Shown here: positions 27,849 to 45,878 of the stretch, piece by piece
How the letters are laid out: each line of letters opens with the position of its first letter
Position numbering within the stretch: the first letter of the stretch is position 1
DNA from: Alphaproteobacteria bacterium
GTDB lineage: Bacteria; Pseudomonadota; Alphaproteobacteria; CAISOG01
Length of the DNA stretch: 64,000 bases
Assembly (NCBI GenBank): GCA_044345375.1
Contig: JBIJBF010000003.1
Span: forward strand, 18,089 to 82,088
Direction of reading: 5' to 3'
Notes under the pieces: model-generated
What the model was told of the DNA's origin: nothing
The model's input: the letters and a program-made list of their open reading frames with translations, nothing else
The model's database searches: none
Program-made: the position numbers and the translations under genes

Positions 27849-29264
27849 TTAGGTCAGCCATTTGAGCGCGAAGGTGGCAAAGCCCAAAAAGGCCATAAAG
27901 CCGACCACATCGGTAACGGTGGTCACGAAAACGCCGCTGGAGATGGCCGGATCGATTTTAAAACGATCAAGGGTCAGGGGGATCAGGGTGCCCGCCAGCG
28001 AGGCCGCCAGCAGGTTGACGACCAGCGCCGATCCCATCACCACGCCAATCACCCAATTTTGGTACCATAGGCCGCTGAACAGGCCGATTAACAGGCCAAG
28101 GCTAAGGCCATTCAGCAGGGCGATCAGCAATTCCTTGACCACAAAGCGCCCCCGTGCGCCCTCACCCAACATCCGGGTCGCCATCCCCCGCACCGCCACC
28201 GCCAGGGTTTGGGTGCCGGCATTGCCGCCCATGCTGGCGACAATCGGCATCAGCACGGCCAGCGCGATCACCTGTTGCAGGGTGTCTTGGAAAAAGGAGA
28301 TTACCCAGCTGGCCAACATCGCGGTGGCCAGATTGATGCTGAGCCAGACAAAGCGGGGGCGGGTGGTGGCCAGCAGGCCGGCGGAAAGATCGCTGTCCCC
28401 CGCATGCGCCAAGCGCAACACATCCTCGGTCGCCTCAGCCTGCAAGACATACAGCACATCATCCACGGTGATCACCCCGATCAGGCGGCCATCGCTGTCA
28501 ATCACTGAGGCGCTGACCAGGCTGTAGCGGCGAAAGATTTGCGCCACCTCCTCCTGATCTGTGTTGACCCCGATCGAATGAAATTCTGGCCGCATCACAT
28601 CGCGCAGCAGGTTGCTGGGCTTGGCGCGCATCAGCTGGGCCAGGGGCAGAACGCCGACCGGCTGATGCGCGGGGTTGACCACGCTGATTTCATAAAACTG
28701 TTCGGGCATTTCCGCCCAGTCTTGCAGCGCCAACCGTGCCTGGCCTATCGTCCAATGTTCCGGCATCGCCATCACCTCGCGCCGCATCAGCCGCCCCGCG
28801 CTGTCCTCAGGGAAGGTCAGGCCTTCTCGCAGGGTTAGCTGCTCCCAGGCGGGCAGGGCGTCCAACACCGCCTGCTGCTCCTCCTCATCCAGATTTTCTA
28901 GCAGGTTAAGCGCATCATCCGATGCCATCTGCTTCAGCGCATCGGCGATCTCGGTGGGGGTCAGATCCTCCAACACATCATCGCGCACGCTGTCGTCCAG
29001 CTCAGCCAGCACATCGGGGTCCAGATCCTCGCCCAACAATTCGATCAGGGCATGCCGGTTTCTGTGCCGCAGCTGGGTTAGCACCAGGGCGATGTCGGGC
29101 GCTGACAGGTCATGCAGCAGCGCCAACACCACCTCAGCCTCCTCATCCTCCAGCGCGATTTCCACCTGTTTCCAAAGCGGGGGTAGGGGGTCGGCGTGCG
29201 GATGCTCCTCAACCACTGGGGTGGGGTTTTCGGGCTCTAAAAGGTGGGGATCGGTGATGGTCAT
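27849..29264 (-). CDS. mgtE: Magnesium transporter MgtE
   Basis: N-terminal MgtE-N domain, tandem CBS domains and five C-terminal transmembrane helices (MgtE channel architecture). Confidence 0.85.
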   Translation of the reverse strand: MTITDPHLLEPENPTPVVEEHPHADPLPPLWKQVEIALEDEEAEVVLALLHDLSAPDIALVLTQLRHRNRHALIELLGEDLDPDVLAELDDSVRDDVLEDLTPTEIADALKQMASDDALNLLENLDEEEQQAVLDALPAWEQLTLREGLTFPEDSAGRLMRREVMAMPEHWTIGQARLALQDWAEMPEQFYEISVVNPAHQPVGVLPLAQLMRAKPSNLLRDVMRPEFHSIGVNTDQEEVAQIFRRYSLVSASVIDSDGRLIGVITVDDVLYVLQAEATEDVLRLAHAGDSDLSAGLLATTRPRFVWLSINLATAMLASWVISFFQDTLQQVIALAVLMPIVASMGGNAGTQTLAVAVRGMATRMLGEGARGRFVVKELLIALLNGLSLGLLIGLFSGLWYQNWVIGVVMGSALVVNLLAASLAGTLIPLTLDRFKIDPAISSGVFVTTVTDVVGFMAFLGFATFALKWLT

Positions 29265-29356
29265 GGCATCAACCCTTGCTGCAGAAGACTAGGTGGTTTC
29301 TTTGTCGGTTACTTCTGCGGAATGGTCAAGCGATAGGGTGGGGGTGTGTCTGTTAC

Positions 29357-29590
29357 TTAATTCCCCTCCCGCGGAGGGGTGGCAGGCGAAGCCTGACGGG
29401 GTGGTTGTTTTAAAAGTTTGTCAGGCGCAGCCTGCCTCCTTTAGATATTTGTCAGGCACAGCCTGACGGGGTGGTTCTTATCTTGGTGGTGTGATGCGCT
29501 GCAGGCAGCACCATGTTTGAATTGTTTGTTACAAGGACCACCCCGCCCTTCGGGCACCCCTCCGCAGGAGGGGAATTTAAGGGGAATTAA
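29357..29590. repeat. Cluster of REP-like elements: one inverted full copy, two partial inverted copies and a variant direct copy
   Basis: 29357-29406 is the reverse complement of the REP consensus. 29418-29440 and 29449-29477 are partial copies. 29536-29577 is a variant in which gcccttcgggc replaces the central hairpin. The cluster lies between the mgtE start and the rnpB 3' end. Confidence 0.75.
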
Positions 29591-29597
29591 GAATTTA

Positions 29598-30028
29598 AGA
29601 TGTCGGTTGGCCTGTAAGCTGGGTTTTGTCTGGGCGGTGAACCGCCCTGGATGGCCATTCATCTTGGGGTGGAATTGCTTCCACACCTCTAGCAACCGAC
29701 CCGCAGAGCCATCGTGGAAACCCGATTGAGTCCCCGAAAAACGGGGGCTCGCGCCCTGCCTATTTGGTTTTGCTCCGGATGGGGTTTACCGCGGCCACGA
29801 TCGGTTGCCCAATCGGCGGTGCGCTCTTACCGCACCTTTTCACCCTTACCGCCCAAGGGTCGAAACCCAAGGACGGCGGTATCGTTTCTGTGGCACTTTC
29901 CCTTGAATTGGCGTTTTCAGCCAACCCCGCTGGGCGTTACCCAGCATCCTGCTTCCATGGAGCCCAGACTTTCCTCTCACCAGCCGAAGCTGAGCAAGCG
30001 GCCATCCAGCCAACCGACGCCGCCATCG
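29598..30028 (-). ncRNA. rnpB: RNase P RNA, bacterial type A
   Basis: The minus strand carries GAGGAAAGUCUGGGCUCC (P4 5' strand), GGUAAGGGUGAAAAGGUGCGGUAAGAGCGCACC (the P10/11-12 consensus), GGUAAACCCCAUCCGGAGCAA and ACAAAACCCAGCUUA (P4 3' strand). P1 is formed by GUCGGUUGGC near 30019 pairing with GCCAACCGAC near 29605. Ends are estimated to within about 5 nt. Confidence 0.9.
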
Positions 30029-30066
30029 TGGCCGATCGGCCTGTTTTGTCAAGAGTGGGGGGACGG

Positions 30067-30831
30067 TTATTCGGCAAAAACCGCGTTGGTGTAGACATCC
30101 TGCACGTCGTCATGCTCATCGAGAGCATCCAGCAGTTTCAGGGCGCTGGCGGTGGCATCTGCGGTCACATCGTTGGAGGTAAGGGGGGTTGGGGTCAGGG
30201 GCAGCCAGACCAATTTGGCGCTGGCCGGCGTGCCAAACTTTGCCTCAAGCCCATCGCGCAGGGTGGCCAGATCATCGGGGGCGCAAAAGGCCGACAGCAT
30301 CGCCATCCCTTCCTCATCCTCCTCCTCAGCCTGCACATCATCCGCGCCCAATTCCAACGCCAGCTCGAACAATTGATCGAATGAGATGCGGGCGGGATAG
30401 GTGATTTGGCCAGCGCGTTTGAACATAAAGGCCACGCTGTTTCCCTCACCCAAGCTGCCGCCGTTTTTGTTGAAAATGGTGCGGACGTCGCTGGCGGTGC
30501 GGTTGCGGTTGTCGGTTGAGCCCTCAACAATAATCGCGATGCCGCCGGGGCCGTAGCCCTCATACCGCACCTCATCATACACCACGCCGCCCTCCTCCCC
30601 ACTGCCCTTACGGATGGCGCGTTCCAGGTTGTCTTTGGGCATGTTGGCCTCACGCGCTGCGGTGATCGCCGCTCTTAGCCGTGGGTTGGTGGCGGGATCG
30701 GCGTTGGATCGCGCCGCCACCATCACCTCGCGCACCAGTTTGGAGAACAGGCGGCTGCGCTTGGCATCCTGCGCGCCCTTGCGGTACATGATGTTTTTAA
30801 ACTGGGAATGGCCAGCCATGATTGCCTCCAA
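30067..30831 (-). CDS. yebC: YebC/PmpR-family transcriptional regulator (DUF28)
   Basis: MAGHSQFKNIMYRKGAQDAKRSRLFSKL is the conserved N-terminus of the family; 254 aa. Confidence 0.9.
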   Translation of the reverse strand: MEAIMAGHSQFKNIMYRKGAQDAKRSRLFSKLVREVMVAARSNADPATNPRLRAAITAAREANMPKDNLERAIRKGSGEEGGVVYDEVRYEGYGPGGIAIIVEGSTDNRNRTASDVRTIFNKNGGSLGEGNSVAFMFKRAGQITYPARISFDQLFELALELGADDVQAEEEDEEGMAMLSAFCAPDDLATLRDGLEAKFGTPASAKLVWLPLTPTPLTSNDVTADATASALKLLDALDEHDDVQDVYTNAVFAE

Positions 30832-30849
30832 CCTTTTTTGTCGAAAAGC

Positions 30850-31452
30850 CTAAAAGCTGATGTTGTCGTGGGTATCGCTGCCGCTGGCCGCATCGGGCAG
30901 GGGGTTTTTGCTGGGGTAGCGTTGCAGCACGGCATCCAGATCGCTTTGCTTGCAAATTTCCAGCCCAACTGGATGGCGCGGGCGGATATTGGCATGGTTC
31001 CAGTGGGTGCGGTCGCGAATGGTTTGGATGGTGTGCTTGGTGGTGCCCAGCAGTTTGACAATCGCGTGATCCGGCACCTCAGGATGCGTGCGCAAGACCC
31101 AGGCCACGGCATCGGGCTTGTCCTGACGCTTGGAAAGGGGGGTGTAGCGGGTGCCACCGCTGCGGCTGGGCAACTCAATCCGGCTTTCGCTGGCCCGCAG
31201 CTGCGCCGACCCATCGGCCTCGCACCGAGCAATCTCCTCAGCCGACAAAACACCGCTCATCAACGGGTTGGAGCCCTGCAGGCCGGTGGCGATATCCCCA
31301 TCCGCCAATGCCTGCACCTCAAGCTGATGCAGGCCGCAAAAGGCGGCAATCTGATCAAAGGTTAGGCCGGTGTTGTCGATCAACCAAATGGCCGTGGCCT
31401 TTGGCATCAAGGGCAGGGCGGAGGATGCGGTTTTTTTAGGGGCGGTGGCCAT
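30850..31452 (-). CDS. Conserved alphaproteobacterial DUF1013-family protein (TrcR-like regulator)
   Basis: PLMPKATAIWLIDNTGLTFDQIAAFCGLHQLEVQALADGD and the internal GTTKHTIQTIRDRTHWN match my memory of DUF1013 proteins. Confidence 0.5.
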   Translation of the reverse strand: MATAPKKTASSALPLMPKATAIWLIDNTGLTFDQIAAFCGLHQLEVQALADGDIATGLQGSNPLMSGVLSAEEIARCEADGSAQLRASESRIELPSRSGGTRYTPLSKRQDKPDAVAWVLRTHPEVPDHAIVKLLGTTKHTIQTIRDRTHWNHANIRPRHPVGLEICKQSDLDAVLQRYPSKNPLPDAASGSDTHDNISF

Positions 31453-31705
31453 CGAGGGATCCTGTTGTTTTTTGTGTGGTTAGCCTTAGAGCCATGCAAC
31501 AGAGCCCAGCCGCGCAAAACACCGCCAAACCCCGCCCAAGCCGTATCAAAAGCTGTCATGGATGGCTAATGGTTACTGCATTGCTGGGTTTGATGCAATT
31601 GAAAAATTGGTGGGGTTGGGGGCGGTGTTCAAAACGGATACATCGCTTTACGAGCTTTACAGAAAATGGCATGGTTTTTCTATAAACTGAGAAAAAATAT
31701 AGAAA

Positions 31706-32179
31706 ATGACCAAAGATAGCAAAATTAAAAAAAATCAAACAAAAACGACTGAAGTTAAGCCAAAGCAAAAAACGCCAAAACCATTGCAGGTTGCAAAAGA
31801 AAATACTGTACCACCTGATCCTGATGTTGACCATGGTGGCAGCCAGCTTAGCCAAGAACTGAACGAATTGTTGGTTGCGGTGGCCAAGGGGCAGCCGTTA
31901 TTGGCGGGTGATAAGATGGGCGAGGTGGCGACGGTGTATCCAACCCTGGACCAACGATTAAAGGTGATGACGATGCTGTTAAAACAACAGGAGCAGGAAA
32001 TGGGCGACATGGTAGAAAAGGATGGCGGTGATGGACGAAAAAAAGCCAAAGCCGCGAAAATCCGCGCGGGCTATAGCGCCGATGAACTTCGCGAACTGCT
32101 CAGCCGCCATTTGGCTGAGCTGTCAACCAAAAAGCCGGCGGGCAAAACTGCTGGCCAGCCTGAGCGATCAGGAGGTTGA
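31706..32179 (+). CDS. Lys-rich small protein, possible small terminase or DNA-binding subunit; first gene of the phage-derived cluster
   Basis: 157 aa. K-rich N-terminus (MTKDSKIKKNQTKTTEVKPKQKTPKP) and a central coiled-coil. The 3' 158 nt overlap the terminase ORF out of frame, and an A7 run sits at the junction. Confidence 0.4.
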   Translation: MTKDSKIKKNQTKTTEVKPKQKTPKPLQVAKENTVPPDPDVDHGGSQLSQELNELLVAVAKGQPLLAGDKMGEVATVYPTLDQRLKVMTMLLKQQEQEMGDMVEKDGGDGRKKAKAAKIRAGYSADELRELLSRHLAELSTKKPAGKTAGQPERSGG

Positions 32180-33395
32180 ACGGCTGTATTACAGCTGGGC
32201 CTTTTGGGCGCGCCCTGAACAGCTGCCGCCGGCCGGTTTGTGGCGGGTGTGGCTGATTCTGGCGGGACGGGGCTGGGGCAAAACCCGAACCGGCGCCGAA
32301 TGGGTTAGCTGGCAGGTGCAAACCGGGCAGGCCAGCCGTATCGCCCTGGTCGCCGCAACGCTGCATGAGGCGCGCAGCGTGATGGTTGAGGGGGCCAGCG
32401 GCTTGTTAAGCTGCAGCCCGCCGTGGAACCGCCCGCGCTATGAGCCATCGAAACGGCTGCTGACCTGGCCCAACGGCGCGGTGGCGCAGTGTTTTGGCGC
32501 TGAGGAGCCGGACAGCCTGCGCGGACCGCAGTTTGATGCGGCCTGGTGCGACGAATTGGCCAAATGGCCCCGTCAGGGTGCCTGGGATCAGCTGATGTTC
32601 GGGCTGCGTTTGGGGCAAAACCCGCAGGTGGTGGCAACGACCACGCCCCAGCCCGTACCGCTGATCGAAAGCCTGGCAAAAAAGGCTGAGGTGGTGGTGA
32701 CAAGGGGCAGAACGCTGGACAACCGTGCCAATCTGGCGGCGGGATTTTTGAGCGAATTGGAGCAAACCTATGCCGGCACTTGGCTGGCTGCGCAGGAGTT
32801 GGAGGGCGAGCTGCTTAGCGATGCGCCAGACACCCTGTGGCCCGCTAAGATTTTGGCGGAGTCGGTGATCGAGCCGGCGTCTGCGCCGCCGATGGTGAAA
32901 ACGCTGCTGGCGATCGACCCTGCCGTAACCAGCCATAGCAGCAGCGACGAAACCGGGCTGGTGGTGGTGGGATTGGGGGAGGATGGGGTGTTTTATGTGC
33001 TGCAAGATGCCAGCGACCGGCTGCGGCCAGAGGTGCTGGTGGAACGGGTGGCGGCGCTGGTTGCCCTGCACAGCATTGGTCAGGTGGTGGTTGAGGTCAA
33101 TCAGGGCGGCGACTGGCTGCTGGAGGCCTTGAATAGTGCAACCTTGGATGCCGTGGTCCAGCCGGTGCGCGCGGTTCAGGACAAATGGACGCGGGCGGAA
33201 CCGGTGGCCATGCTGTATGCGCAGGGTCGGGTGAAGCATGTGGGCCGTCTGCCAACGCTGGAGGCGCAGCTGCGGGCCTGTCGTCGTGGGACTAGGAGCG
33301 GAGGAATGGATCGGGTGGATGCGCTGGTTTGGGCGATTCGCAGTTTGAAACAGGCCAGCGTTAAGCAGCGCGGGTTTGCGGTTCGGGTGGTTTAG
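32022..33395 (+). CDS. Phage terminase large subunit (GTA g2-like TerL)
   Basis: LLASLSDQEVERLYYSWAFWARPEQLPP...WRVWLILAGRGWGKTRTGAEW is the N-terminal signature shared by alphaproteobacterial GTA-type large terminases. An ATPase Walker region and a C-terminal nuclease-like DxD pattern are present. The exact start is uncertain (32022 or 32082). Confidence 0.8.
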   Translation: MAVMDEKKPKPRKSARAIAPMNFANCSAAIWLSCQPKSRRAKLLASLSDQEVERLYYSWAFWARPEQLPPAGLWRVWLILAGRGWGKTRTGAEWVSWQVQTGQASRIALVAATLHEARSVMVEGASGLLSCSPPWNRPRYEPSKRLLTWPNGAVAQCFGAEEPDSLRGPQFDAAWCDELAKWPRQGAWDQLMFGLRLGQNPQVVATTTPQPVPLIESLAKKAEVVVTRGRTLDNRANLAAGFLSELEQTYAGTWLAAQELEGELLSDAPDTLWPAKILAESVIEPASAPPMVKTLLAIDPAVTSHSSSDETGLVVVGLGEDGVFYVLQDASDRLRPEVLVERVAALVALHSIGQVVVEVNQGGDWLLEALNSATLDAVVQPVRAVQDKWTRAEPVAMLYAQGRVKHVGRLPTLEAQLRACRRGTRSGGMDRVDALVWAIRSLKQASVKQRGFAVRVV

Positions 33396-33703
33396 TTGGT
33401 GGATTCATCCAACTCTTGCAACAGCTTGTCTGCATCCTGCCTGCCAAGGATGGTCATGATTTCTGCGGTATCGTCAATCATGCGATAATAGATGCTATGA
33501 GATCCGCAAATTCTGCGCCGATATCCTTGGCGGATATAATCCACAGATGGATAAGAAAGAGGGTGTTTTGCAATTTTTTCAAAAGCATCAAACATTTTTT
33601 GAAGATAATAATCAGCTTTTTGTAATCCGTACTGCACAAAACCCCATTGATAAATTGTTACAAGATCTTCTTCGGCCTGTTTTTTAAGTTTATACGTTCC
33701 CAT
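33392..33703 (-). CDS. parE: Type II toxin ParE/RelE family
   Basis: 103 aa with RelE/ParE-fold features (YRRRICGSHSIYYRMIDD..IMTILGRQD). Low GC. Overlaps the upstream antitoxin gene. Confidence 0.75.
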   Translation of the reverse strand: MGTYKLKKQAEEDLVTIYQWGFVQYGLQKADYYLQKMFDAFEKIAKHPLSYPSVDYIRQGYRRRICGSHSIYYRMIDDTAEIMTILGRQDADKLLQELDESTN

Positions 33704-33944
33704 GAAAACCTAATTTCTTCAACGCCTCGGCCTTAATGTCTTCGGCTGTCATGGTACTAAATTCTCTGTTTTCCGCACTGATCAGTTTTGAACGAATATA
33801 ATCGATCTCGGTCGTTTCCTTTAACCTTGCGTGACGAATCAGAGCGTTAACGACTTCACTTTTGTTGAAATATTCTTGTTTTTCAACCTGCTGTTTAAGC
33901 CAATCATCATTGGGGGTGGTGAGAGAAATGCTTTGTCTTGTCAT
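33690..33944 (-). CDS. parD: Type II antitoxin ParD (RHH/CopG fold)
   Basis: The 84-aa protein starting MTRQSISLTTPNDDWLKQQVEKQEYFNKSEVVNALIRHARLKE is a typical ParD ribbon-helix-helix. AGGAG ribosome-binding site 9 nt upstream. Overlaps the parE start by 14 nt. Confidence 0.75.
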   Translation of the reverse strand: MTRQSISLTTPNDDWLKQQVEKQEYFNKSEVVNALIRHARLKETTEIDYIRSKLISAENREFSTMTAEDIKAEALKKLGFHGNV

Positions 33945-34036
33945 GATCCTGCTCCTGTAAACAACGATATCTGGTTCTATTATGCACCATATACGCACCA
34001 CACACAATATTTATCAACCTTATCAAGGAAAATTCC

Positions 34037-35236
34037 ATGAAAGACTGGATTCAACGACGTTTTTTAAGCCGTTCTGCGGATGCTGTGCCAGCGGCCAAGG
34101 CTAGCAGGGCGGGGCATTTGATGGTTTATGGCCAGCTGAATCAGCCGCGCTGGACACCGCGGCGCTACGACATGCTGGCTGAGGAGGGGTATCGGCGCAA
34201 CGTGGTGGCCTTTCGCTGCATTAAGGAGATTGCGCAGGGGGCGGCGGGGGTTCCCTGGATTTTGTATCAGGGCGATCAGGAGCTGGTTGAGCACCCGTTG
34301 CTGCGGCTGCTGACCAACCCCAACCCCACGCAGGGGCAGGCCAGTTGGGCTGAGATGCTGTACAGCAACCTGCTGATTGCCGGCAATGCCTATATCGAGG
34401 CGGTGGGGGATGGTGACCAGCTGCCGCGCGAGCTTTGGGTGCTGCGCCCCGATCGGATGACGGTGGTGGCGGGGATGTACGGCGTGCCAAAGGCTTATGA
34501 ATACCAGATCAACGGCCAAGTCTACCGCTGGTCGGCGGATGTGGCCAATGGCGCATCCCCCATCCTGCATCTGAAAAGCTTTCATCCGTTGGATGATTGG
34601 TACGGCCTGAGCCCGATGGAGGCGGCGGCCTATGCGATTGATCAGCACAACGAGGCATCCAAATGGAACCAATCGCTGTTGCAAAACGGCGCACGCCCCA
34701 GCGGCGCGCTGGTGGTTCAGATGAGCAAGGATGGGGATGCCAGCCTGAGCAGCGAACAGTTTGATCGGCTGAAAGCGCAGCTGGATGAGCAGTACAGCGG
34801 CCCTGTCAACGCGGGCAGACCGATGCTGTTGGAGGGCGGGTTGCAGTGGGTGGACATGATGATGAACCCCAGGGATTTGGATTACCTGAACGCCCGCTAT
34901 GCCGCTGCGCGTGAGATCGCCCTGGCCTTTGGCTATCCCCCCATGCTGTTGGGGATTCCGGGCGACAACACCTATAACAACCAGCGCGAGGCAAGGGTGG
35001 CGTTGTGGGAGCAAACCATCCTGCCGTTGGTGCACCAGCTGCGCGACGGGCTGAACAACTGGCTGCTGCGGCAGGCTTACGGGGTGGGGGAGGCGCCGTT
35101 GCGGATTGATTACGATCCAGATGCCATCAGCGCCCTGTCGCTGCGCCGTGAACAGCTGTGGGACAAACTGAACAAGGCGGAGTTTCTTAGCACCGATGAG
35201 AAGCGTCAGGCTGCTGGGTATGGGGTGATGGGCTAG
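34037..35236 (+). CDS. Phage portal protein, HK97 family
   Basis: 399 aa with portal-family motif spacing (WILYQGDQELVEHPLLRLL..., LHLKSFHPLDDWYGLSPMEAA..., PMLLGIPGDNTYNN) and the expected position after the terminase. Confidence 0.8.
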   Translation: MKDWIQRRFLSRSADAVPAAKASRAGHLMVYGQLNQPRWTPRRYDMLAEEGYRRNVVAFRCIKEIAQGAAGVPWILYQGDQELVEHPLLRLLTNPNPTQGQASWAEMLYSNLLIAGNAYIEAVGDGDQLPRELWVLRPDRMTVVAGMYGVPKAYEYQINGQVYRWSADVANGASPILHLKSFHPLDDWYGLSPMEAAAYAIDQHNEASKWNQSLLQNGARPSGALVVQMSKDGDASLSSEQFDRLKAQLDEQYSGPVNAGRPMLLEGGLQWVDMMMNPRDLDYLNARYAAAREIALAFGYPPMLLGIPGDNTYNNQREARVALWEQTILPLVHQLRDGLNNWLLRQAYGVGEAPLRIDYDPDAISALSLRREQLWDKLNKAEFLSTDEKRQAAGYGVMG

Positions 35237-35317
35237 CTGGGCTTGGAGTTGTTTGGGTTTTTTGGGGCTTGGTGGAGACAATCTGCCAAGTCTTTTTTTG
35301 TTTCTTAAGGGGATGTT

Positions 35318-35953
35318 GTGATGAGACAAGGATTGGTTTTGCTAACCGCGCCAGCGGTTGAGCCGGCCACGTTGGTTGAGGCGAAAAGCTATTTGGGTGT
35401 GCTGGATCCGGCCGAAGATGCGCTGATCGGCAATTTGATTACCGCTGCCAGACAGGCGGTGGAGAGCTATACGGGGCGGGTGTTGATCACCCAAAGTTGG
35501 CGTCTGACGCTGGACAACTGGCCAGAACCTAAGGTTGGGGTGGGATCGGACTGGTTAAGCCTGCAACAGGATTGGCCAGCGCAGTTTTCTGGGAACGGTG
35601 GACTGGTGGTGGTTGAGTTGCCCAAGGCGCCGCTGCAAAGCGTTAGCGGGGTTCGGGTGTACGACAGCAGCGGGGTGGCCAGCACGGTTGCGCCGTCCGC
35701 CTATGTCGTGGACACCACCACCACGCCAAGCCGGTTGGTGTTTGGCAGCAATATCAGCCTGCCCGCGGTGGGGCAGGTGGCACGCGGCATTGAGATCGAT
35801 TTTGTTGCCGGTTATGGCGCCTCAGCCACCAGCCTGCCAGCCATGCTGCGTCAGGCGGTGTTGGCGGGGGTTAAGGTTTTGTACGAGCGGTCGGGTGGCG
35901 CCATGTCGAGCGCGTTGCGGTTGGCCGAGCTGTTCAAGCTGAAAAGGATATAG
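35318..35953 (+). CDS. gp6-like head-tail connector protein
   Basis: The N-terminal pattern LVEAKSYLGVLDPAEDALIGNLITAARQAVESYTGRVLITQSWRLTLD is diagnostic of the phage gp6-like connector (Phage_connect_1) family. Confidence 0.75.
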   Translation: MMRQGLVLLTAPAVEPATLVEAKSYLGVLDPAEDALIGNLITAARQAVESYTGRVLITQSWRLTLDNWPEPKVGVGSDWLSLQQDWPAQFSGNGGLVVVELPKAPLQSVSGVRVYDSSGVASTVAPSAYVVDTTTTPSRLVFGSNISLPAVGQVARGIEIDFVAGYGASATSLPAMLRQAVLAGVKVLYERSGGAMSSALRLAELFKLKRI

Positions 35954-35956
35954 AGG

Positions 35957-36475
35957 ATGAGCGACACGGTTTTAACCCTTAGCCTTGCGGGCTTTCCCCC
36001 CCTTGGTTTGCCGCGGGTGGAGCAGGAGCTGCGCCCGATTGCCCAACATGCAACCCGCCGCACGGTGAATGGGGCGTTGCAGGACAGCGGTTGGAGCGGC
36101 TGGCAGAAATTTGAGACGGTCATTACCTGCGAGTTGCCCCTGCCGCCTGCTTTGGGCGGGATTTGGCCGGGGATGGCGGTCACGGTTGGTTGCGTGTTGC
36201 CGCTTTGTGAGCAATTAAGCGGCGCAACCAGCAAAACCTTGGCGAAAACGCCGGTGGCGGGCAGCGTTTATGCGGTGGATGGGCTTGGCAACCCGATTGC
36301 GGTGGTCAGCCTTAGCGGCAAGCTGCTGACGCTGGCCAGTTTTAGCGGCACCGCCAGCATCACCTATCGCCCCAGCCTTAGCATGCGGGTGGTGGATTTG
36401 CGTCTGACCACCAAGGAGGCGCCGCGTGGCAGCCGTAATGCCGGCGGTTGGCGGCTGGAATTAAGCGAGATTTAG
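35957..36475 (+). CDS. Hypothetical phage structural protein
   Basis: 172-aa intact ORF tightly packed between the connector and the next structural gene. Host-like GC. No recognisable motif. Confidence 0.4.
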   Translation: MSDTVLTLSLAGFPPLGLPRVEQELRPIAQHATRRTVNGALQDSGWSGWQKFETVITCELPLPPALGGIWPGMAVTVGCVLPLCEQLSGATSKTLAKTPVAGSVYAVDGLGNPIAVVSLSGKLLTLASFSGTASITYRPSLSMRVVDLRLTTKEAPRGSRNAGGWRLELSEI

Positions 36476-36486
36476 GGGGTCAAAAC

Positions 36487-38409
36487 ATGTTGTATTTTGC
36501 TTGGGTGGATGCCAACGAGGCTTGGAATGCCAGCCTGCATGCTCTTGAGGATGAGGCGTTGTTGCAGGTGGATCTGCAGCAGCTGGAGGGCAAGCCGGCG
36601 CAATTGCAGATTTTGGTGCGGAACCCAGGTCAGGGCTTGCTGAACCCCGCGCGCAAGACCCGCGCCTTTCTGAGCCATCAGGGGGCTGGGCAAAGCGTGC
36701 CGGTGTTGATGTTTGCGGGTCGGGTGATTGCGGTGGCGCAGGTGGACGGCAGCGAGCTGGTCCGCATCACCCTGACCGCCCTGCCTAATGACGCGGCGGC
36801 GTTGCTGCAGAGCTTTAGCGCTGGGTTAAAGGTGGCGCCCTATTGGGATGATTTGTTTGTCAGCCCCAGCCGTCGTGATGATCCGGATGAGGTGTTAAAG
36901 GCGAGAGATGCGGTGTATTGTTGGGACAAGCTGACCAACACGGTGTCGTTAAGCGGCCTGTTTGTCGGCAATCAAAGCCTGAATCTTGGCCAAAATTTTT
37001 TCTACGACAGTTTGCAGCAGGAATTGGCTGAAACGCCGCTTAGCGCGGTTGAGATGACGGTGGTGGCCGAATGGGCGCAGCAGGCGCGCGGTATAACCGA
37101 CGTAACCCGCCGGATTGAGCGGGCCTTTGGCGGGCAAAAAATCAACAGCCTGACCGGCCGGGATTTGGCGGCGCGGTGGCCATCGGCGGCCAAGCTGATT
37201 AATCGGCAATCGGGCTATCAGGTGGATCAGGCGCAGTTGCAGGAATATGTGCCGCCAGCTGGTGCCGCCAGTGTGTATCCCACCGCCAGCGTGTCGGTGG
37301 AGATGGGGGTTGAGGAGTACCCCTATCCAGCTGGTGTCACCAAGCCTGCGGGCAATAGCCGGCCGTTGTTTGTGAAGCGTTGGTGGTTTAACGCCAAGCT
37401 GGTGCTGAGCTGGCATTATCGGCAAAAACGGCGGGAGGAGCTGCTATTCCGGCTGAACCATGCGGTGCAGGCGGTGGCGCCAAGCGGTGGAGCGGTGCAA
37501 AAAATTGCGGTGACCATGCAGGAACTGCTGCTGGATACCGCGACGCCGACTTGGGGGGCTGGATACAGTTATCAGCTGGGGGATCAGGTGCGGTTTGGCG
37601 CCTTTGTCTACCAATGTTTGTTGGTGCATAGCGCATCCAACAGTTTTGCCAGCGATCTGGCGGCGCTGAAATGGAAGCAATTGGCCGCAGATGCCAGCGC
37701 GCTGGGCGCAGGGTGGCGCAGCAGCTTTTTTGTGACCAGCCGTGGCCAGCAGGCGGTACAGCACGCGATTGAACGGGCGCGGGCAGCGCTGGCCAGATCC
37801 CTGCGCGCCGTGCAGATTACCGTGCAGGCGCGTTGGGAGGATTTGCAGGGCGTGGGTTTGGATCACAGCCTGACGATCAGCGACCAACGCCTGCCGGGCG
37901 GCACGGCGACGGGCAAGGTGGTTGGTCTGCGTTTTTATGCGGATGGCGACAAGGGGCAGGCGTGGGCTGAGGTAACGATGGCTTGTGCGGTGGGGACTGG
38001 GGCGGCGCAACCAACGCCGGCGGCGGGCAGTGGCAGCTATACCGCTGATGGCTATGACAGCCTTGGCTGGCAGCCGCGTCAAAATGGCCAGTTGGCCAGT
38101 GTTAGCGGTATTGTCTACAACGATGATGTTGCGGGACAGCTTAGCCCGCAGGGATTGCTGTATCCCACCCAGCTGGATGCCCTGGATCTGGTGCGCAAAG
38201 TAACGGTGGTGAATGATGCGGAGCAGCAGAACGCCTATCTGTTGGCCAATCAGTATCCGCAGCGGCGCAACCTGCAGGCGGTGGTCAATGAGAAAAAGAC
38301 CAGCATCAAGCTGGAACTGCTGGACCTGACCGCCGATGACCAACTGCGCCAGCAGATCACCCTGACCATTCCCAATGCTTGGAGTGGTCCTAAGCAAATT
38401 GAGTTGTAA
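36487..38409 (+). CDS. Large phage structural protein, possible tail or receptor-binding protein with a carbohydrate-binding-like module
   Basis: 641 aa from the ATG at 36487 (AGGGGG ribosome-binding site). Contains YQLGDQVRFGAFVYQCLLVHSASNSFASDLAALKWKQL, which resembles the CBM5/12-like Y..N....P...W.. motif seen in phage tail proteins. Confidence 0.4.
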   Translation: MLYFAWVDANEAWNASLHALEDEALLQVDLQQLEGKPAQLQILVRNPGQGLLNPARKTRAFLSHQGAGQSVPVLMFAGRVIAVAQVDGSELVRITLTALPNDAAALLQSFSAGLKVAPYWDDLFVSPSRRDDPDEVLKARDAVYCWDKLTNTVSLSGLFVGNQSLNLGQNFFYDSLQQELAETPLSAVEMTVVAEWAQQARGITDVTRRIERAFGGQKINSLTGRDLAARWPSAAKLINRQSGYQVDQAQLQEYVPPAGAASVYPTASVSVEMGVEEYPYPAGVTKPAGNSRPLFVKRWWFNAKLVLSWHYRQKRREELLFRLNHAVQAVAPSGGAVQKIAVTMQELLLDTATPTWGAGYSYQLGDQVRFGAFVYQCLLVHSASNSFASDLAALKWKQLAADASALGAGWRSSFFVTSRGQQAVQHAIERARAALARSLRAVQITVQARWEDLQGVGLDHSLTISDQRLPGGTATGKVVGLRFYADGDKGQAWAEVTMACAVGTGAAQPTPAAGSGSYTADGYDSLGWQPRQNGQLASVSGIVYNDDVAGQLSPQGLLYPTQLDALDLVRKVTVVNDAEQQNAYLLANQYPQRRNLQAVVNEKKTSIKLELLDLTADDQLRQQITLTIPNAWSGPKQIEL

Positions 38410-38432
38410 CCATCATCCAGAAAAGAAAGCGT

Positions 38433-39131
38433 GTGAGCATGTCAGAGCTGTTGTATATACAGGTTCCCCTGCAAGGGAAAACCCTGTCAGAAATTGGAAT
38501 TTTTGAGGGCTACGCCAGTGTGTTTGGCGTGATTGATCGCCAACAAGATCAGGTGATGCCGGGGGCTTTTCGCAAAAGCCTGCTGAACGCTGAGGCCAAT
38601 CGGGCGATGCCAAAATTGTTGTGGCAGCATGATCCCGCGCAGCCGATTGGGGTTTGGCAGATGCTGAAGGAGGACAGCACCGGTTTGTATGTGCGCGGGC
38701 AGCTGCTGTTGGATTTGCCGCGCGCGCAGGAGGCCTATGTGCTGCTAAAGGCTGGCGCGATGGACGGGCTTAGCATCGGTTATGAGGTGGTGCAGGCCAG
38801 CAAGGATCGCCGCAGCGGTATCCGCCAGCTGTTGGAGGTGAAGTTGTGGGAAATATCGCTGGTCACCTTTGCCGCCAACACTTCCGCAAGGGTTACCGTG
38901 GTGAAGCACGGGCAGGGGGATGGGTTGCCCGAAGCGCAATCGCCCCGTTTGTTTGAAAAATTTCTGCGTGATGCAGGATTCAGCCGCCGCCAAGCGGTCG
39001 CGCTGACCAATCACGGCTGGCCAGGCCTGAAAAGCTTAGCCAGCCAGCCGCGGGATGCGGCGCTACAGGACACAGAATACCGCCAGCTGGTCGCCAAATT
39101 GCGGCAGACGGTTAGCATTCTGCAATCCTAA
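38433..39131 (+). CDS. HK97-family prohead protease
   Basis: The N-terminal LSEIGIFEGYASVFGVIDRQQDQVMPGAFRKSL and the later MDGLSIGY pattern are typical of the HK97 prohead protease (S78). Confidence 0.8.
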   Translation: MSMSELLYIQVPLQGKTLSEIGIFEGYASVFGVIDRQQDQVMPGAFRKSLLNAEANRAMPKLLWQHDPAQPIGVWQMLKEDSTGLYVRGQLLLDLPRAQEAYVLLKAGAMDGLSIGYEVVQASKDRRSGIRQLLEVKLWEISLVTFAANTSARVTVVKHGQGDGLPEAQSPRLFEKFLRDAGFSRRQAVALTNHGWPGLKSLASQPRDAALQDTEYRQLVAKLRQTVSILQS

Positions 39132-39163
39132 CACTTTTATCAAAACAACAAAGGAATGATGAG

Positions 39164-40387
39164 ATGACGACAGTGTACAACAACGATGCCCCCACCGACG
39201 TGTTGCAGGTGGTGGATCAAATGAACCAAGTGTTTGCCGAGTTTAAAGCGCAGAACAACCAGCTGATTGCGCAGGTTGAGCGCAAAAATGCCGCCGATGC
39301 GGTAACCGTGGACACCGTAAACCGCCTGAACCAACTGCTGCAAAAACAACAGGACAGAATTGACAGCCTGAGCATCAGCGCCAAACGCAGCCCGCTGAGC
39401 CTAAACCAAGGTGGCTATGTTGGCTTGGCCGAGCAGGAGCATAAGGAGGCCTTTATGAGCTATCTGCGCAAGGGGGATGAGCTGGGGCTGCAAGGCTTTG
39501 AACGCAAGGCGTTGAGCAGCACCACCGATGCCGATGGTGGCTTTAGTTTGCCCAAGATTTTGGCCGATTTTATGATTCAGACCATTTTTGATACCAGCCC
39601 GATCCGGCAGATTGCCAATGTGGTGACGGTTGGCAATGATGCCTTTGAGGTGTTGGCGGATGCGACCGAGGCCGCGGCGGCCTGGGTGACGGAGGCGCAG
39701 GCACGGGCTGAAACCGCAACGCCCACCTTTAACAAAATCCGCATTCCGGTTCAGGAATTGGCGGCATCCCCTAGGGCATCGCAGCGTTTGTTGGACGACA
39801 GCAGTTTTGACATGGAGGCCTTTTTGGCGGCGGAGGTGGCCGGCAAATTTGCCAGACTGGAAAACACGGCCTTTGTTTCGGGGACGGGCACTGGCCAACC
39901 ACGCGGTTTCTTAACCTATGCCGCTGGTACCGCCTGGGGGCAGATTGAGCAGGTCAAAACCGGTGTGGCGGGCGCATGGCCGGCCAGCAACCCCGCCGAT
40001 ATCTTGCTGGATTTGATGACCAAGCTGAAAAGCAGCTATCTGAACGGCGCGGCATGGGTGTTGAACCGCAACACGCTGGCCGATATTCGCAAGTTTAAGG
40101 ATACCACCGGGCAGTATATTTGGCAGCCAGGTTTGGGAACCGCATCCAGCACCCTGTTGGGCTACCCCGTTTATCTGGCTGAGGATATGCCAAGCAAGGC
40201 CGCCAGCAGCCTTTCGGTTGGGTTTGGCAATTTTAAACAGGGCTACACCATTGTGGACCGCGTGGGGATCCGCCTGCTGCGCGACCCCTATACCGCCAAG
40301 CCGTTTGTGGTGTTTTACTTTACCAAACGCACCGGCGGCGATGTGGTGAATTTTGAGGCAATCAAACTGCTGCAATTCGCGGTGTAG
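39164..40387 (+). CDS. HK97-fold major capsid protein with an N-terminal scaffolding (delta) domain
   Basis: 407 aa. Coiled-coil N-terminus, then GFSLPKILADF, DEAFLAAEVAGKFARLENTAFVSGTG and a WQPGLGT region characteristic of HK97-family major capsid proteins. Follows the protease. Confidence 0.8.
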   Translation: MTTVYNNDAPTDVLQVVDQMNQVFAEFKAQNNQLIAQVERKNAADAVTVDTVNRLNQLLQKQQDRIDSLSISAKRSPLSLNQGGYVGLAEQEHKEAFMSYLRKGDELGLQGFERKALSSTTDADGGFSLPKILADFMIQTIFDTSPIRQIANVVTVGNDAFEVLADATEAAAAWVTEAQARAETATPTFNKIRIPVQELAASPRASQRLLDDSSFDMEAFLAAEVAGKFARLENTAFVSGTGTGQPRGFLTYAAGTAWGQIEQVKTGVAGAWPASNPADILLDLMTKLKSSYLNGAAWVLNRNTLADIRKFKDTTGQYIWQPGLGTASSTLLGYPVYLAEDMPSKAASSLSVGFGNFKQGYTIVDRVGIRLLRDPYTAKPFVVFYFTKRTGGDVVNFEAIKLLQFAV

Positions 40388-40402
40388 TTGTTAAGTGCAT
40401 AG

Positions 40403-40446
40403 GGGGGGGCTGAGCAGCGTTTTGCTTGGCCCCCTTTTTGTTTTTT
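40403..40446 (+). terminator. Hairpin plus T-tract immediately downstream of the capsid gene
   Basis: GGGGGC-(16-nt loop)-GCCCCC followed by tttttgtttttt. It sits between the capsid stop (40387) and the next gene start (40462). Confidence 0.6.
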
Positions 40447-40461
40447 GGAGGGAGCAAGGCG

Positions 40462-41625
40462 ATGCCTATACGCACGTCTATCATTACGACGCAAAATTTT
40501 TCAGGCTACAGCGAGGCCGCTAGTCGGGATGAAAACCCCGATGCTGGCGTGCTGGACTTGGCCAATGAGCAGGGCAGTGATGAGGTGGTGTTGATCGATC
40601 CCTATGCCGCGCTGGATTTGCCCGCCGAAATCACGTTGCGTGCCGGTTTGGTTCCGGTCTATGTGGCCAGCACCAACAACGCGCAGGCGCAGCTGTTGGC
40701 CAATGGCGCGCCCAGCAACCCGGTGGCGGTCAATTTGTACCAAAACACCGGCCGCTTTGCCGGCAGCAATTTGGTGAATGATGAGGCCTTTTACGCGCAG
40801 GAACGCCAGCGCACCATTCAGGAGTTGCGGTTGATCTACAACAATCAGTTTAGCTGGCGCCCCTTTGGCAGCAATGTGGTGTTTAGCGGTTCGGGGGCTA
40901 GCGTTAACGGTTATCCGCTGGTGTTGGGCAGCGGCAACAGTGTGTACAGCAAGCCCTTTGCGGTGCAGCCAAGCGGTGGGTTGGCGACGCTGACCCTGTA
41001 CTACAGCTACAACAGCGGCACCGCGCAATACGGCGCGCAGACCGACAGCGGTTTTGTTAGTAACCCTGCCCATAAGTTGGTTAGCCCAGTGGACAGCAGT
41101 TATAGCGGCGCGCCCAGCAGTTGGCAGGCGATTAAGCTTAGCAGCGGGGTTGAAACACTGTACAGCGCGACCCTGCTGAACCGGCAATTCTATCGCGCCT
41201 ATGGCGGCGACTATGTGGTGGGGATGACCGCCGATCAGGTGCGGCAAAAATGCTTTCGCATCAGCGCGGTGGCCTATAGCACCAGCGGCAACGCCAACAC
41301 CGAGTTTGACACGATGATGGGGGTGGTGAACGCCAGCTTGTGGGGCAGCGGATCCTGCCGCACCCGTATTGGCCAGCCAAGCGATTTGACGAAATATGAG
41401 GATGTGTTGGCGGCGGGCAGCCATCTGGCCAGCGGCGATTTTGCTAGCCCCGAACAGGTGATCAGCCTGGCCAGCGCGTTGCAGCAGGGGATGGCCAAAA
41501 TCCAGCTGAATCTTGGGTTGGACAGCAACGGCCAGCCGATTTTTGGCCAGTATCAATCGGTGGCCTGGAGCCACCCCGGGGGGGATGCGAGCCTGATTGA
41601 TGTGACTTTTGTACCAATCGGTTAG
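40462..41625 (+). CDS. Hypothetical phage structural protein, possible tail or baseplate component
   Basis: 387 aa from the ATG at 40462 (GGAGGG ribosome-binding site). Ser/Gly/Asn-rich and beta-predicted. No recognisable motif. Confidence 0.4.
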   Translation: MPIRTSIITTQNFSGYSEAASRDENPDAGVLDLANEQGSDEVVLIDPYAALDLPAEITLRAGLVPVYVASTNNAQAQLLANGAPSNPVAVNLYQNTGRFAGSNLVNDEAFYAQERQRTIQELRLIYNNQFSWRPFGSNVVFSGSGASVNGYPLVLGSGNSVYSKPFAVQPSGGLATLTLYYSYNSGTAQYGAQTDSGFVSNPAHKLVSPVDSSYSGAPSSWQAIKLSSGVETLYSATLLNRQFYRAYGGDYVVGMTADQVRQKCFRISAVAYSTSGNANTEFDTMMGVVNASLWGSGSCRTRIGQPSDLTKYEDVLAAGSHLASGDFASPEQVISLASALQQGMAKIQLNLGLDSNGQPIFGQYQSVAWSHPGGDASLIDVTFVPIG

Positions 41626-41657
41626 CGATTGATTTCATTTTTTTAAGGAGAAAGCCT

Positions 41658-43238
41658 ATGACGATTGTGTTGCGAACGGTTAAGGGCGCGCCCCTGACCA
41701 TCACGGAAATTGACGGCAATTTTAGCCAGTTGACGGACAGGCTGACGGCGCTGGAGCAGAATCCGCCGCTGGCGGAAAGCATTGGTGCGATCAGCGTGCA
41801 GGGCGATCAGCTGAGCATTCTGGGCAATCGGGGCAGCAATTTTGGCCAATTTGCCCTGCCGGTTGCGCAATTGGTGGCGCGTGGGGTTTGGGCAACCGCC
41901 ACCGCCTATGCCAAGCTGGAGATGGTCAACGCGCCCGATGGCAATGGCTATATTTGCCTAACCGCGCATACCAGCGGGGTGTTTGCCACCGATTTGGCCG
42001 CCAACCGTTGGGCTAAGCTGGTCAATGCTGGCACGGCTGGTGTAACCGGTAAGGTGTTAACCGGCGCAGGCCTAACCGGTGGCGGTGATTTGTCGGTGGA
42101 TCGAACCCTAAGCTTAGCATCGATGCCTGCCAACAGCCTAAAGGGCAACAACAGTGCCAGCACGGCGGTGCCGGTCGATTTAACCGCCGCGCAGGCCGCC
42201 GCCATGCTGCCAGCGATGCTTGGCGACAGCGGCAGTGGTGGGGCTAAGGGGTTGGTGCCAGCCCCGGCGGCTGGGGATGCGGCGGCGGGCAAATTCCTGA
42301 AAGCCAATGGCACTTGGGCGGTGCCTGCAGGCGGCGGTGGGGGCGGTAGCGTTGGTGGAAGCTCAGGGCAGCTGCAGTACAACAGCGCTGGCGTTTTTGC
42401 TGGCGCCACCAATCTTAAGGTGATCGGCAGTGGCGCGGGGTTGAATTTTGGCGGGGTGGCGCTGCAGCCTGCGGCCAGTGCGGGCAGCCTGAATCTGTAT
42501 GCCAACAACGAGCTTGGCCAGGCTTTCTTAAGCCTGCGCAGCGATACCGCCCCCGAAGCGTTTGTGCAGGAATGTTTGGGGCATCGCAGTGTGGCGATCA
42601 TTTTGCCCAGCAGCGGCGGGTTGGTGGCCTCATTTGGGGTTAACACCAGCAACGCCGGCAGCATTACCCACAGCAGCAGCGCGGCGATAGGCTATTGGAT
42701 CGCCAATGCCACAACAGCGACGGCCAATAATGATGTCTATTTTGCCACGGCGGCCAATTATTTTTACCGCAACCTTGGGTTTTACCACGCCGCGACCCTG
42801 AACTATCCCGATGCCAGCTATGGCGCTGGCGCGACTGGAACCCGCATCGGCGTTGGGTTGGTGGCCAATGCCGCCAGCAATCTGTTGGCCGGTGATACCC
42901 TATTGACCGCTGGCTGTGGTTTTCAGTATTCGACCAACCGTGGGGATAGCAATTGGCAGCTGGTTAGCTTTGACGGCACCACCCAAACCACGGTGAACAC
43001 CGGCATGGTTTTTGCCCCCGCCAAGCTTTATCAGTTTGAGCTGTTTGCCGCGCCCAATGGCGGCAGCCTGAATTGGCGGATCAAAAACCTGACCGACAAC
43101 AGCATGCAGAGCGGGGTGGTCACCACCAACCTGCCGCCAGCCAGCACCGGACTGATGATGATGGCGGGTGTGCGCAACCTAGGCGCCAGTATCCGCAACA
43201 TGCAAATGAAACGCATGTATGGAACTAGCTCTATTTGA
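41658..43238 (+). CDS. Phage tail fibre protein
   Basis: Motifs LTGGGDLSVDRTLSL, KGNNSASTAVPVDLT and GLVPAPAAGDAAAGKFLKANGTWAVP, a poly-Gly hinge (AGGGGGGSVGGSSG), and QLQYNSAGVFAGATNL are all typical tail-fibre repeats. Confidence 0.75.
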   Translation: MTIVLRTVKGAPLTITEIDGNFSQLTDRLTALEQNPPLAESIGAISVQGDQLSILGNRGSNFGQFALPVAQLVARGVWATATAYAKLEMVNAPDGNGYICLTAHTSGVFATDLAANRWAKLVNAGTAGVTGKVLTGAGLTGGGDLSVDRTLSLASMPANSLKGNNSASTAVPVDLTAAQAAAMLPAMLGDSGSGGAKGLVPAPAAGDAAAGKFLKANGTWAVPAGGGGGGSVGGSSGQLQYNSAGVFAGATNLKVIGSGAGLNFGGVALQPAASAGSLNLYANNELGQAFLSLRSDTAPEAFVQECLGHRSVAIILPSSGGLVASFGVNTSNAGSITHSSSAAIGYWIANATTATANNDVYFATAANYFYRNLGFYHAATLNYPDASYGAGATGTRIGVGLVANAASNLLAGDTLLTAGCGFQYSTNRGDSNWQLVSFDGTTQTTVNTGMVFAPAKLYQFELFAAPNGGSLNWRIKNLTDNSMQSGVVTTNLPPASTGLMMMAGVRNLGASIRNMQMKRMYGTSSI

Positions 43239-43282
43239 TGGGGAAAATTGTTTTTAATATTAACATTTAATTAGTAAATCTC

Positions 43283-43546
43283 ATGGATAAAATAACCATC
43301 AATAATGCACTAAATCGTCTTCTTGAGCAGGCCGCAAAACGCGGCGCGCAACAAGCCCTGGCTGAGCTGGGGTTGCATGACCGCAATGCTGGAGAAGATA
43401 TGCGTGATTTGCGGGGGTTGTTGGATGCTTGGCGCACCGCAAAGCGTACCATCGGACAAACCCTGCTGAGAACGTTAACGGTTATGTTGCTGATCGGCAT
43501 GCTGACGGGCGTTTTGATCAAGTTAAAGATGGTTGCTTCGAACTAA
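43283..43546 (+). CDS. Putative holin or small membrane protein of the lysis cassette
   Basis: 87 aa. Charged N-terminus, a single C-terminal transmembrane helix (LLRTLTVMLLIGMLTGVLI) and a basic tail. Immediately upstream of the endolysin and overlapping it. AT-rich start context. Confidence 0.45.
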   Translation: MDKITINNALNRLLEQAAKRGAQQALAELGLHDRNAGEDMRDLRGLLDAWRTAKRTIGQTLLRTLTVMLLIGMLTGVLIKLKMVASN

Positions 43547-43580
43547 TTCATTTGGGAGCAGGAATTTCGGGAGGATGGAG

Positions 43581-45864: not shown

Positions 45865-45878
45865 GGGGGACGCCTAAA

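Follow-up and report, generated by a model that had tools for sequence, protein, structure and literature searches.

A low-GC ParD/ParE toxin-antitoxin cassette inserted at the terminase-portal junction of a phage-derived head-gene cluster from an uncultured lake alphaproteobacterium

How did two low-GC minus-strand genes come to separate the large terminase gene from the portal gene in a cluster of phage-derived head genes, and what might they do there? This question is raised by a 64,000-nucleotide (nt) stretch of DNA from an uncultured lake alphaproteobacterium (assembly GCA_044345375.1, contig JBIJBF010000003.1, positions 18,089 to 82,088), referred to here as the window. An initial annotation had described the two genes as a ParDE toxin-antitoxin (TA) pair, had proposed that they were a later horizontal insertion, and had suggested that they might act as an addiction module or as a polar block between terminase and portal expression. 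The list of open reading frames (ORFs) showed the coordinates of the pair to be exact, and its low GC content was confirmed. The inserted block, defined by alignment with two relatives and by GC statistics, comprises 641 nt (33396-34036; GC 0.396) and exactly fills the gap between the terminase gene, which ends at 33395, and the portal gene, which starts at 34037; in the relatives, this place is occupied by a single base between the terminase stop and the portal start. The reading we favor, with a probability of about 70%, is that the block is a mobile type II ParD/ParE cassette, horizontally acquired from an AT-richer donor, that landed in the one-base terminase-portal junction and persists as a selfish addiction module.

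The composition of the block sets it apart from the phage genes on either side. In 200-nt windows, GC content was 0.355-0.42 across 33400-34000, compared with 0.62-0.67 in the terminase and portal flanks and 0.566 in the window as a whole. With the 54 genes of the window as the reference (mean GC 0.574, standard deviation 0.044), parE (GC 0.391; GC at third codon positions, GC3, 0.365) had a z-score of -4.2 and parD (GC 0.404; GC3 0.435) a z-score of -3.9. Equally AT-rich 641-nt windows made up 1.05% of all such windows and corresponded to the insert and three other low-GC islands. Low GC could have been an intrinsic trait of this TA family. We rejected that explanation because the more distant ParDE homologues that we checked are matched in GC to their hosts (0.56 vs 0.61 and 0.47 vs 0.47), which argues that the pair is foreign in its present location.

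Comparison with related loci supported an insertion. A portal-profile scan restricted to one genome per species recovered 80 loci, all from uncultured Alphaproteobacteria, and a match to parD or parE was found at none of the 80. The closest relatives with an empty site are L010, from a metagenome-assembled genome (MAG) labelled Holosporaceae, and L092 (GCA_964687945.1), each with a portal 81% identical to that of the window. Their junction reads ...GGTTTAG-G-ATGAAAAAT..., with the terminase stop and portal start one base apart (TAG-G-ATG) and the portal Shine-Dalgarno sequence located inside the terminase gene. The window differs from this empty site only by the 641 nt between TAG and ATG, and the C-terminus of the terminase and the N-terminus of the portal are unchanged. 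The portal start codon is identical in the alignment to that of the empty-site relatives, and the intact terminase C-terminus is conserved in insert-free relatives (the tblastn match to L010 spans residues 4-457). Relatives with 66% identity (L093-L095) have a terminase-portal gap of 36 nt. The closest homologues of ParD and ParE (61-68% identical) reside in non-phage contexts: downstream of alaS, beside tatABC and a transposase, and beside insertion sequence fragments. The empty sites, the absence of the pair from all 80 loci and the non-phage homologues together support the proposed later horizontal insertion. They also bear on the opposite explanation, that the pair is an ancestral component of the cluster that was lost from the relatives. 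The nearest sister lineage, described below, has a remnant of the cassette at this junction, which would fit such an origin. We nevertheless consider that origin extremely improbable: the clean empty sites in the two 81% relatives effectively refute it, about half of the more distant relatives have a short terminase-portal gap or none, the GC content of the pair is 4 standard deviations from the mean, and the nearest homologues occupy unrelated chromosomal contexts. The locus thus varies between presence and absence between conserved phage genes, being empty in L010 and L092, holding a remnant in the sister lineage and carrying other cargo elsewhere.

We also looked for traces of the insertion process. 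The 8-mer TGGATTCA occurs near both ends of the insert (33400-33407 and 34046-34053), and it is also found at portal codons 4-6 of the empty-site locus L010. We rejected it as a target-site duplication, since the left flank lacks the ATGAAA expected of a true duplication and since 8-mers recur by chance, five 8-nt repeat families being present in 951 nt; TGGATTCA could be a microhomology used at insertion, or it could be a chance repeat. An integron gene cassette was likewise rejected: no attC site was found, the junction GTTGGTG does not fit the GTTRRRY core, and there is no room for attC because parE ends flush in the terminase stop codon. A repeat search detected no long inverted repeat at the parE end of the insert. 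Terminase and parE are convergent, and 4 nt (33392-33395) belong to both ORFs: the last sense codon of parE takes in the G of the terminase TAG, and the TAA that ends parE is read from the strand opposite 33392-33394, in terminase-derived sequence.

Having delimited the insert, we examined what it encodes. The product of parE (33392-33703, minus strand; 103 amino acids, aa) matched the Pfam family PF05016 (ParE_toxin) with 46.2 bits, above the gathering cut-off of 23, over profile positions 1-86 of 89. In phmmer searches it matched the sequences of solved ParE structures, including Mycobacterium tuberculosis ParE1 (8c24), PrpT (7ycs), Caulobacter ParE1 (3kxe) and Vibrio cholerae ParE2 (7r5a), with E-values of 4e-10 to 1e-6. 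An AlphaFold model built on eight homologues had a mean predicted local distance difference test score (pLDDT) of 84.4 and the order of secondary structure elements E-H-H-E-E-E(-H), in agreement with a ParE-type fold. When Foldseek was used to compare this model with the Protein Data Bank, the first 23 matches were all ParE-class proteins, with query-normalised template modelling (TM) scores of 0.68-0.82, target-normalised scores of ~0.68-0.89 and root-mean-square deviations (rmsd) of 0.9-2.3 Å; the best of them reached target-normalised scores of 0.85-0.89 with an rmsd of 0.9-1.4 Å. The RNases RelE, YoeB and YafQ ranked below the ParE-class proteins and mostly had lower scores (query-normalised TM ~0.48-0.65). 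By sequence and predicted structure, the 103-aa protein is a ParE-class toxin.

Identification of the partner required information from its family. The parD gene (33690-33944, minus strand) encodes 84 aa from an ATG at 33944, and its homologues all start with MTRQSIS, as does the window copy. ParD itself matched TIGR02606 with an E-value of 6.5e-8 and 32.5 bits over 67 of 70 profile positions, below the curated cut-off of 46.2, and a Pfam scan at E ≤ 0.01 gave no match. The aligned homologues are 51-68% identical to it; 23 of the 27 aligned sequences match PF03693 (ParD_antitoxin), and the profile of the family matches V. cholerae ParD2 (7b22; E 2.3e-7) and Caulobacter ParD1 (3kxe_C; E 5.5e-5). 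On the strength of these family matches, we assign the family of the 84-aa protein to ParD. The monomer model of ParD was poor (pLDDT 65, with the N-terminal 27 residues unstructured), which is not surprising for a ribbon-helix-helix protein that is an obligate dimer and has a disordered tail. The protein is predicted to have a ribbon-helix-helix N-terminus and a toxin-binding C-terminus. Profile searches thus upheld both halves of the pair, ParE above its cut-off and ParD through its family.

The organization of the two genes is that of a type II TA system, that is, small, adjacent, overlapping genes with the antitoxin first. The parD gene precedes the co-oriented parE and overlaps it by 14 nt, and homologous pairs elsewhere (L096-L107) likewise encode 82-84 aa followed by 95-103 aa, with overlaps of 8 or 14 nt. 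A 92-nt spacer (33945-34036) separates the divergent starts of parD and the portal gene. Reading of the sequence placed a Shine-Dalgarno site for parD, AGGAG, on the minus strand (complement of 33952-33956) and one for the portal gene, AAGGA, on the plus strand (34025-34029), 7 nt before the ATG; the latter is supplied by the end of the insert. The promoter and operator of the TA genes presumably lie in the spacer, where a weak minus-strand candidate promoter was discerned by eye (-35 TTGTGT, 34002-34007; -10 CATAAT, 33979-33984). No terminator-like hairpin was detected on either strand in 33200-34200.

From the known behavior of the RK2, Caulobacter, Vibrio and mycobacterial ParDE systems, we infer a transcription pattern, autoregulation, a gyrase target and a stabilizing role for the pair. 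The parD-parE bicistron would be transcribed leftwards from the 92-nt spacer, ParD dimers would repress the promoter through their N-terminal ribbon-helix-helix domain, and the C-terminal tail of ParD would neutralise ParE. Upon depletion of ParD, free ParE would poison DNA gyrase and replication would stop. Loss of the cassette and adjacent DNA would thereby be penalised, and the cassette would persist because its toxin must be inactivated first. The head-gene cluster tolerates the insert, the portal having gained a new Shine-Dalgarno sequence from the insert end, and portal expression would presumably continue by read-through.

An informative comparison came from the nearest sister lineage, L090 (GCA_043528455.1), in which the portal is 97% identical to that of the window and the flanking genes have 96-99% nucleotide identity, with synonymous divergence (dS) of 0.03-0.10. 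At the same junction, L090 carries a 350-nt remnant of the cassette. Its spacer is 90% identical to that of the window, and a 10-nt deletion there removes the only -10-like hexamers, the candidate -10 of the weak promoter among them. In its parD, the first 21 nt are conserved and the next 75 nt, encoding the ribbon-helix-helix core (residues 8-32, 25 residues), are deleted, leaving a 59-aa remnant in which the 3′ half is kept. The parE gene is absent and has been replaced by a ~85-nt GC-rich hairpin, CACCCCTCCGCAGGAGGGGAA, that resembles repetitive extragenic palindromic (REP) elements (L090 ~993-1075). The CACCCCTCCGCAGGAGGGGAA hairpin has four intergenic copies in the window (9326-9346, 13112-13132, 29361-29381 and 29555-29575), compared with 0.01 expected. 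The decayed copy at the same site indicates that the cassette was at the junction before the lineages of the window and L090 split and is not a very recent arrival. The deletion pattern further indicates that the cassette decayed toxin-first. Given that this is the only viable order of loss for an active addiction module, it provides circumstantial evidence that ParE was toxic.

Several findings weigh against the interpretation of the block as a simple, active addiction cassette. First, ParE ends in a C-terminal tail of ~6 residues, LDESTN, that arose at the insertion junction; none of the aligned homologues has it, and confidence in this part of the model is low (pLDDT about 54). The C-termini of ParE proteins matter for toxicity, and this unique tail suggests that the copy in the window could be attenuated. 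Second, ParD on its own falls below curated cut-offs and yields only the low-confidence monomer model described above. Third, a consensus scan found no sigma-70-like promoter in 33200-34200, the spacer included. Fourth, wherever the exact ParD and ParE proteins occurred, the context was the same and the source was a near-identical contig, either from one of several lake metagenomes or from one MAG. The lake contigs derive from the JGI metagenomes 3300033994, 3300042361 and 3300042516. We rejected this conservation as a sign of selection: with 99.7-100% overall identity to the window, the contigs represent one population and not independent evidence of selection. Finally, the parD copies of the window and L090 share only 68% identity in their 3′ halves, in contrast to 96-100% for the flanks, and this value is far below what a dS of ≤ 0.10 allows. 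By this comparison, simple vertical descent of one cassette is not the whole story, and the cassette was probably partly replaced by a different allele in one lineage.

Some of these findings would also agree with an inactive hitch-hiker, whose ORFs are intact only since the population is young and whose ParE is disabled by its junction-derived C-terminus. The unique tail, the stop codon borrowed from terminase sequence, the origin of all identical-pair contigs from one near-clonal population, and the decay of the cassette in L090 are what such an explanation would predict. However, neither ORF is truncated, the alignments show every family-invariant residue to be present (22 columns in ParE and 21 in ParD), and the pair retains its operon architecture and both Shine-Dalgarno sites. 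In addition, the toxin was fully removed in L090 and the toxin-binding half of the antitoxin persisted, which suggests an active toxin in the common ancestor. We therefore consider an inactive pair improbable.

We next considered the consequences of the insertion for the flanking head genes. The insert abolishes the translational coupling between terminase and portal, and the initial annotation had raised the possibility of a polar block. All structural genes of the cluster are intact, and the ratios of nonsynonymous to synonymous substitution rates (dN/dS) between the window and L090 were 0.06 for the terminase, 0.14 for the portal, 0.00 for the connector, 0.20 for p172, 0.07 for p640 and 0.09 for the protease, values that indicate that the flanking head genes remain under purifying selection. 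Because the portal has a Shine-Dalgarno sequence of its own, no terminator-like site was found, the genes are intact and dN/dS is 0.00-0.20, a complete polar block is unlikely; a quantitative effect on head-gene expression is possible. Such an effect would be central if the insert acted on the element itself, with antisense or convergent transcription and lost coupling throttling or gating expression of the portal and downstream genes. The 641-nt antisense insert indeed abolishes the 1-nt stop-start coupling seen in empty-site relatives, the TA transcript would run into the 3′ end of the terminase gene in the absence of a terminator, and a ParE/RelE-superfamily pair in prophage Pf4 is reported to modulate phage production (PMC13048266). 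This regulatory role seems to us a long shot, given that the plus strand of 33200-34200 has no terminator-like site, that AAGGA is a good Shine-Dalgarno sequence and that the downstream structural genes are intact and under purifying selection.

The ParDE cassette is one of several kinds of cargo at this junction. Among the fetched relatives, 19 of 43 terminase-portal junctions exceed 200 nt, and several of these gaps are AT-rich and carry other genes: HTH_17 and PIN_3 proteins in L024, DUF4258 and an MqsA-like helix-turn-helix protein in L061, DUF3892 in L081 and DUF6969 in L032. In L055 (2384-3374) the cargo is a 228-aa protein that ends in a DUF4258 toxin domain, and in L074 (6623-7821) it is a 222-aa protein with a weak C-terminal match to Ntox44; a small ORF comes after each of them. 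The N-termini of the L055 and L074 proteins are related (31% identity over 89 aa), while their C-terminal toxin domains differ, and the arrangement of these sequences is that of a polymorphic toxin and its immunity gene. Variable junctions were also found elsewhere in the head module, in 42 of 68 cases between portal and protease and in 19 of 58 between protease and capsid. We thus rejected a hotspot specific to the terminase-portal junction, as other head-gene junctions are at least as variable, and the comparison points to general moron-type plasticity and not to a dedicated slot.

These observations are relevant to the idea that the pair, as one of many junction cargos, owes its retention mainly to an anti-phage function (abortive infection) or to a role in competition between elements, to the benefit of the host or the cluster. 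The toxin-type cargo in the gaps of L024, L061, L055 and L074 and the frequency of long gaps would be consistent with such a function, and prophage defence hotspots are established for P2 and P4 (PMC9122126). We regard this as unlikely for the present pair, albeit the most credible of the other functions considered for it. No PADLOC defence model was matched by ParD or ParE, no phage-sensing component is evident, the decay of the cassette in the sister lineage argues that it is dispensable, and the equal variability of the portal-protease and protease-capsid junctions speaks against a dedicated defence slot.

Toxin-type sequences also occur within a head gene. In L092 (8001-10082; GCA_964687945.1, CBAEAB010000010.1), the portal is a 607-aa protein with the Phage_portal domain at residues 66-399 and a C-terminal Colicin_E5 tRNase domain at residues 531-602 (36.6 bits; cut-off 25), and its gene is followed by an 80-aa ORF that possibly encodes an immunity protein. 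More than 8000 portal homologues score at E ≤ 1e-30. Six others are 539-691 aa long and have C-terminal extensions; these long portals may be polymorphic portal-toxin fusions. We tentatively propose a broader, rather speculative idea for this family of HK97-type clusters in uncultured Alphaproteobacteria: the terminase-portal, portal-protease and protease-capsid junctions might be exchangeable cargo slots that preferentially collect toxin-type modules and turn them over by allelic replacement, the latter suggested by the shared junction and spacer but 68% identical parD 3′ halves of the window and L090. The modules would comprise ParDE, the HTH-PIN and DUF4258-HTH pairs, the proteins tipped with DUF4258 or Ntox44 and the portal-colicin E5 fusion. 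Should particles package or deliver some of these toxins, the clusters would serve for toxin delivery or competition and would not be plain defective prophages.

The cluster that received the cassette spans ~31.7-45.9 kb. It begins with genes for a 157-aa protein and the large terminase subunit (32022-33395, plus strand; Pfam Terminase_6N and Terminase_6C), followed by the TA pair, the HK97-type portal (34037-35236, plus strand; Pfam Phage_portal, 286.8 bits, and TIGR01537) and a TIGR02215 connector. Genes for 172-aa and 653-aa proteins, an S78 protease and an HK97 capsid protein follow, and the cluster ends with genes for 399-aa and 526-aa proteins, a GH108 endolysin and a 584-aa protein. The 172-aa and 653-aa proteins matched no NCBIfam model, Pfam family or PHROG of known function (the 653-aa protein gave weak sub-threshold matches only), and the 399-aa and 526-aa proteins matched no Pfam or PHROG family. 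The flanks of the cluster are chromosomal, with trcR, yebC and RNase P RNA on one side and obg on the other. No integrase was found in the cluster, a repeat search of 29200-47000 gave no convincing att-like direct repeats, and the window contains no tRNA. A check for a gene set like that of the gene transfer agent (GTA) RcGTA found the terminase, HK97 portal, S78 protease, HK97 capsid and TIGR02215 connector to be present. The cluster is either a defective prophage or a GTA-like element.

Gene order within and around the cluster varies among relatives. In the window (compared region 35318-40387) and L090, a block consisting of the connector, the 172-aa protein and the 653-aa protein precedes protease and capsid, whereas in L092 (compared region 10857-16611), L013 and most relatives the order is portal-protease-capsid-connector-172-639, which indicates that block transposition inside the head module has occurred. 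The 81%-related cluster adjoins topA-ftsZ-dagK in L092 (compared region 3649-7999) and mgtE-yebC-trcR in the window (compared regions 16537-18411 and 30067-32022), where ftsZ is ~13 kb upstream; either the element moved or the chromosome was rearranged. The RNase P RNA gene (bacterial class A, 268 bits; 29599-30017, minus strand) lies just upstream of yebC and was the sole match in an Rfam scan of 29000-47000, and the long ORFs listed across it are spurious. The window also has low-GC islands (GC 0.44-0.47) at 11163-13001, 18587-20365, 20649-21458 and 22060-22755, which encode, respectively, a 612-aa protein without a Pfam match, a HEAT-repeat protein, a Sel1-repeat protein and a 231-aa protein without a match. 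The eukaryote-like repeat proteins encoded there would be compatible with life in association with a host, which agrees with the labelling of the nearest MAG as Holosporaceae.

Taken together, the ParDE insertion is real but ordinary as an accessory-gene insertion, TA morons in prophages being well documented. Its value lies in offering a datable TA life cycle in a phage-derived cluster, with an exact empty site, an intact occupied site and a toxin-first-deleted sister in which an antitoxin stump remains. It also demonstrates that 641 nt of antisense sequence can be accommodated between translationally coupled terminase and portal genes while the head genes stay under selective constraint. Two by-products seem to us the most interesting: the series of toxin-first decay at one site, and the abundance of toxins in the cargo of related clusters, the portal-colicin E5 fusion included. 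It is for the wider pattern among relatives, with toxin-type cargo at head-gene junctions and this fusion, that a dedicated survey might be worthwhile.

The pair resembles the known ParDE systems of RK2, Caulobacter crescentus (ParDE1, 3kxe), V. cholerae (ParDE2, 7r5a), M. tuberculosis (ParDE1, 8c24) and Pseudoalteromonas (PrpAT, 7ycs) in its antitoxin-first overlapping bicistron, in its ~100-aa toxin of the ParE fold (target-normalised TM 0.85-0.89, 26-31% identity) and in its ~80-aa antitoxin, the family profile of which matches ParD2 and ParD1. It differs from them in that its ParD lies below curated Pfam and NCBIfam thresholds and its ParE carries the junction-created C-terminal extension, and gyrase poisoning is here ascribed to it by analogy. 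A ParE-like toxin is also found inside a prophage in the PfiAT system of Pseudomonas Pf4 (9w3a; query-normalised TM 0.75). PfiT, however, is only 18% identical to the ParE of the window, has a distinct C-terminus and is reported to regulate filamentous phage production.

With respect to genomic position, the closest parallel is Campylobacter jejuni prophage CJIE4, in which mazF (CJE1470) lies between the large terminase (CJE1471) and HK97 portal (CJE1469) genes (PMC3995785). In both cases a TA gene occupies the same terminase-portal junction of an HK97-type head module, and its presence varies among related elements. The toxins differ, being a MazF RNase in CJIE4 and a member of the gyrase-poisoning ParE class here, and CJIE4 is a recognisable prophage with an integrase, whereas the cluster in the window lies between housekeeping genes and has neither integrase nor att repeats. 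The accessory hotspots of temperate phages and satellites, such as those of P2 and P4 (PMC9122126), similarly combine conserved phage flanks with interchangeable, compositionally deviant cargo. The cargo in the family of the window differs from theirs in having no PADLOC match and in being spread over several equally variable head-gene junctions, and about half of the relatives of the window cluster carry no cargo at all.

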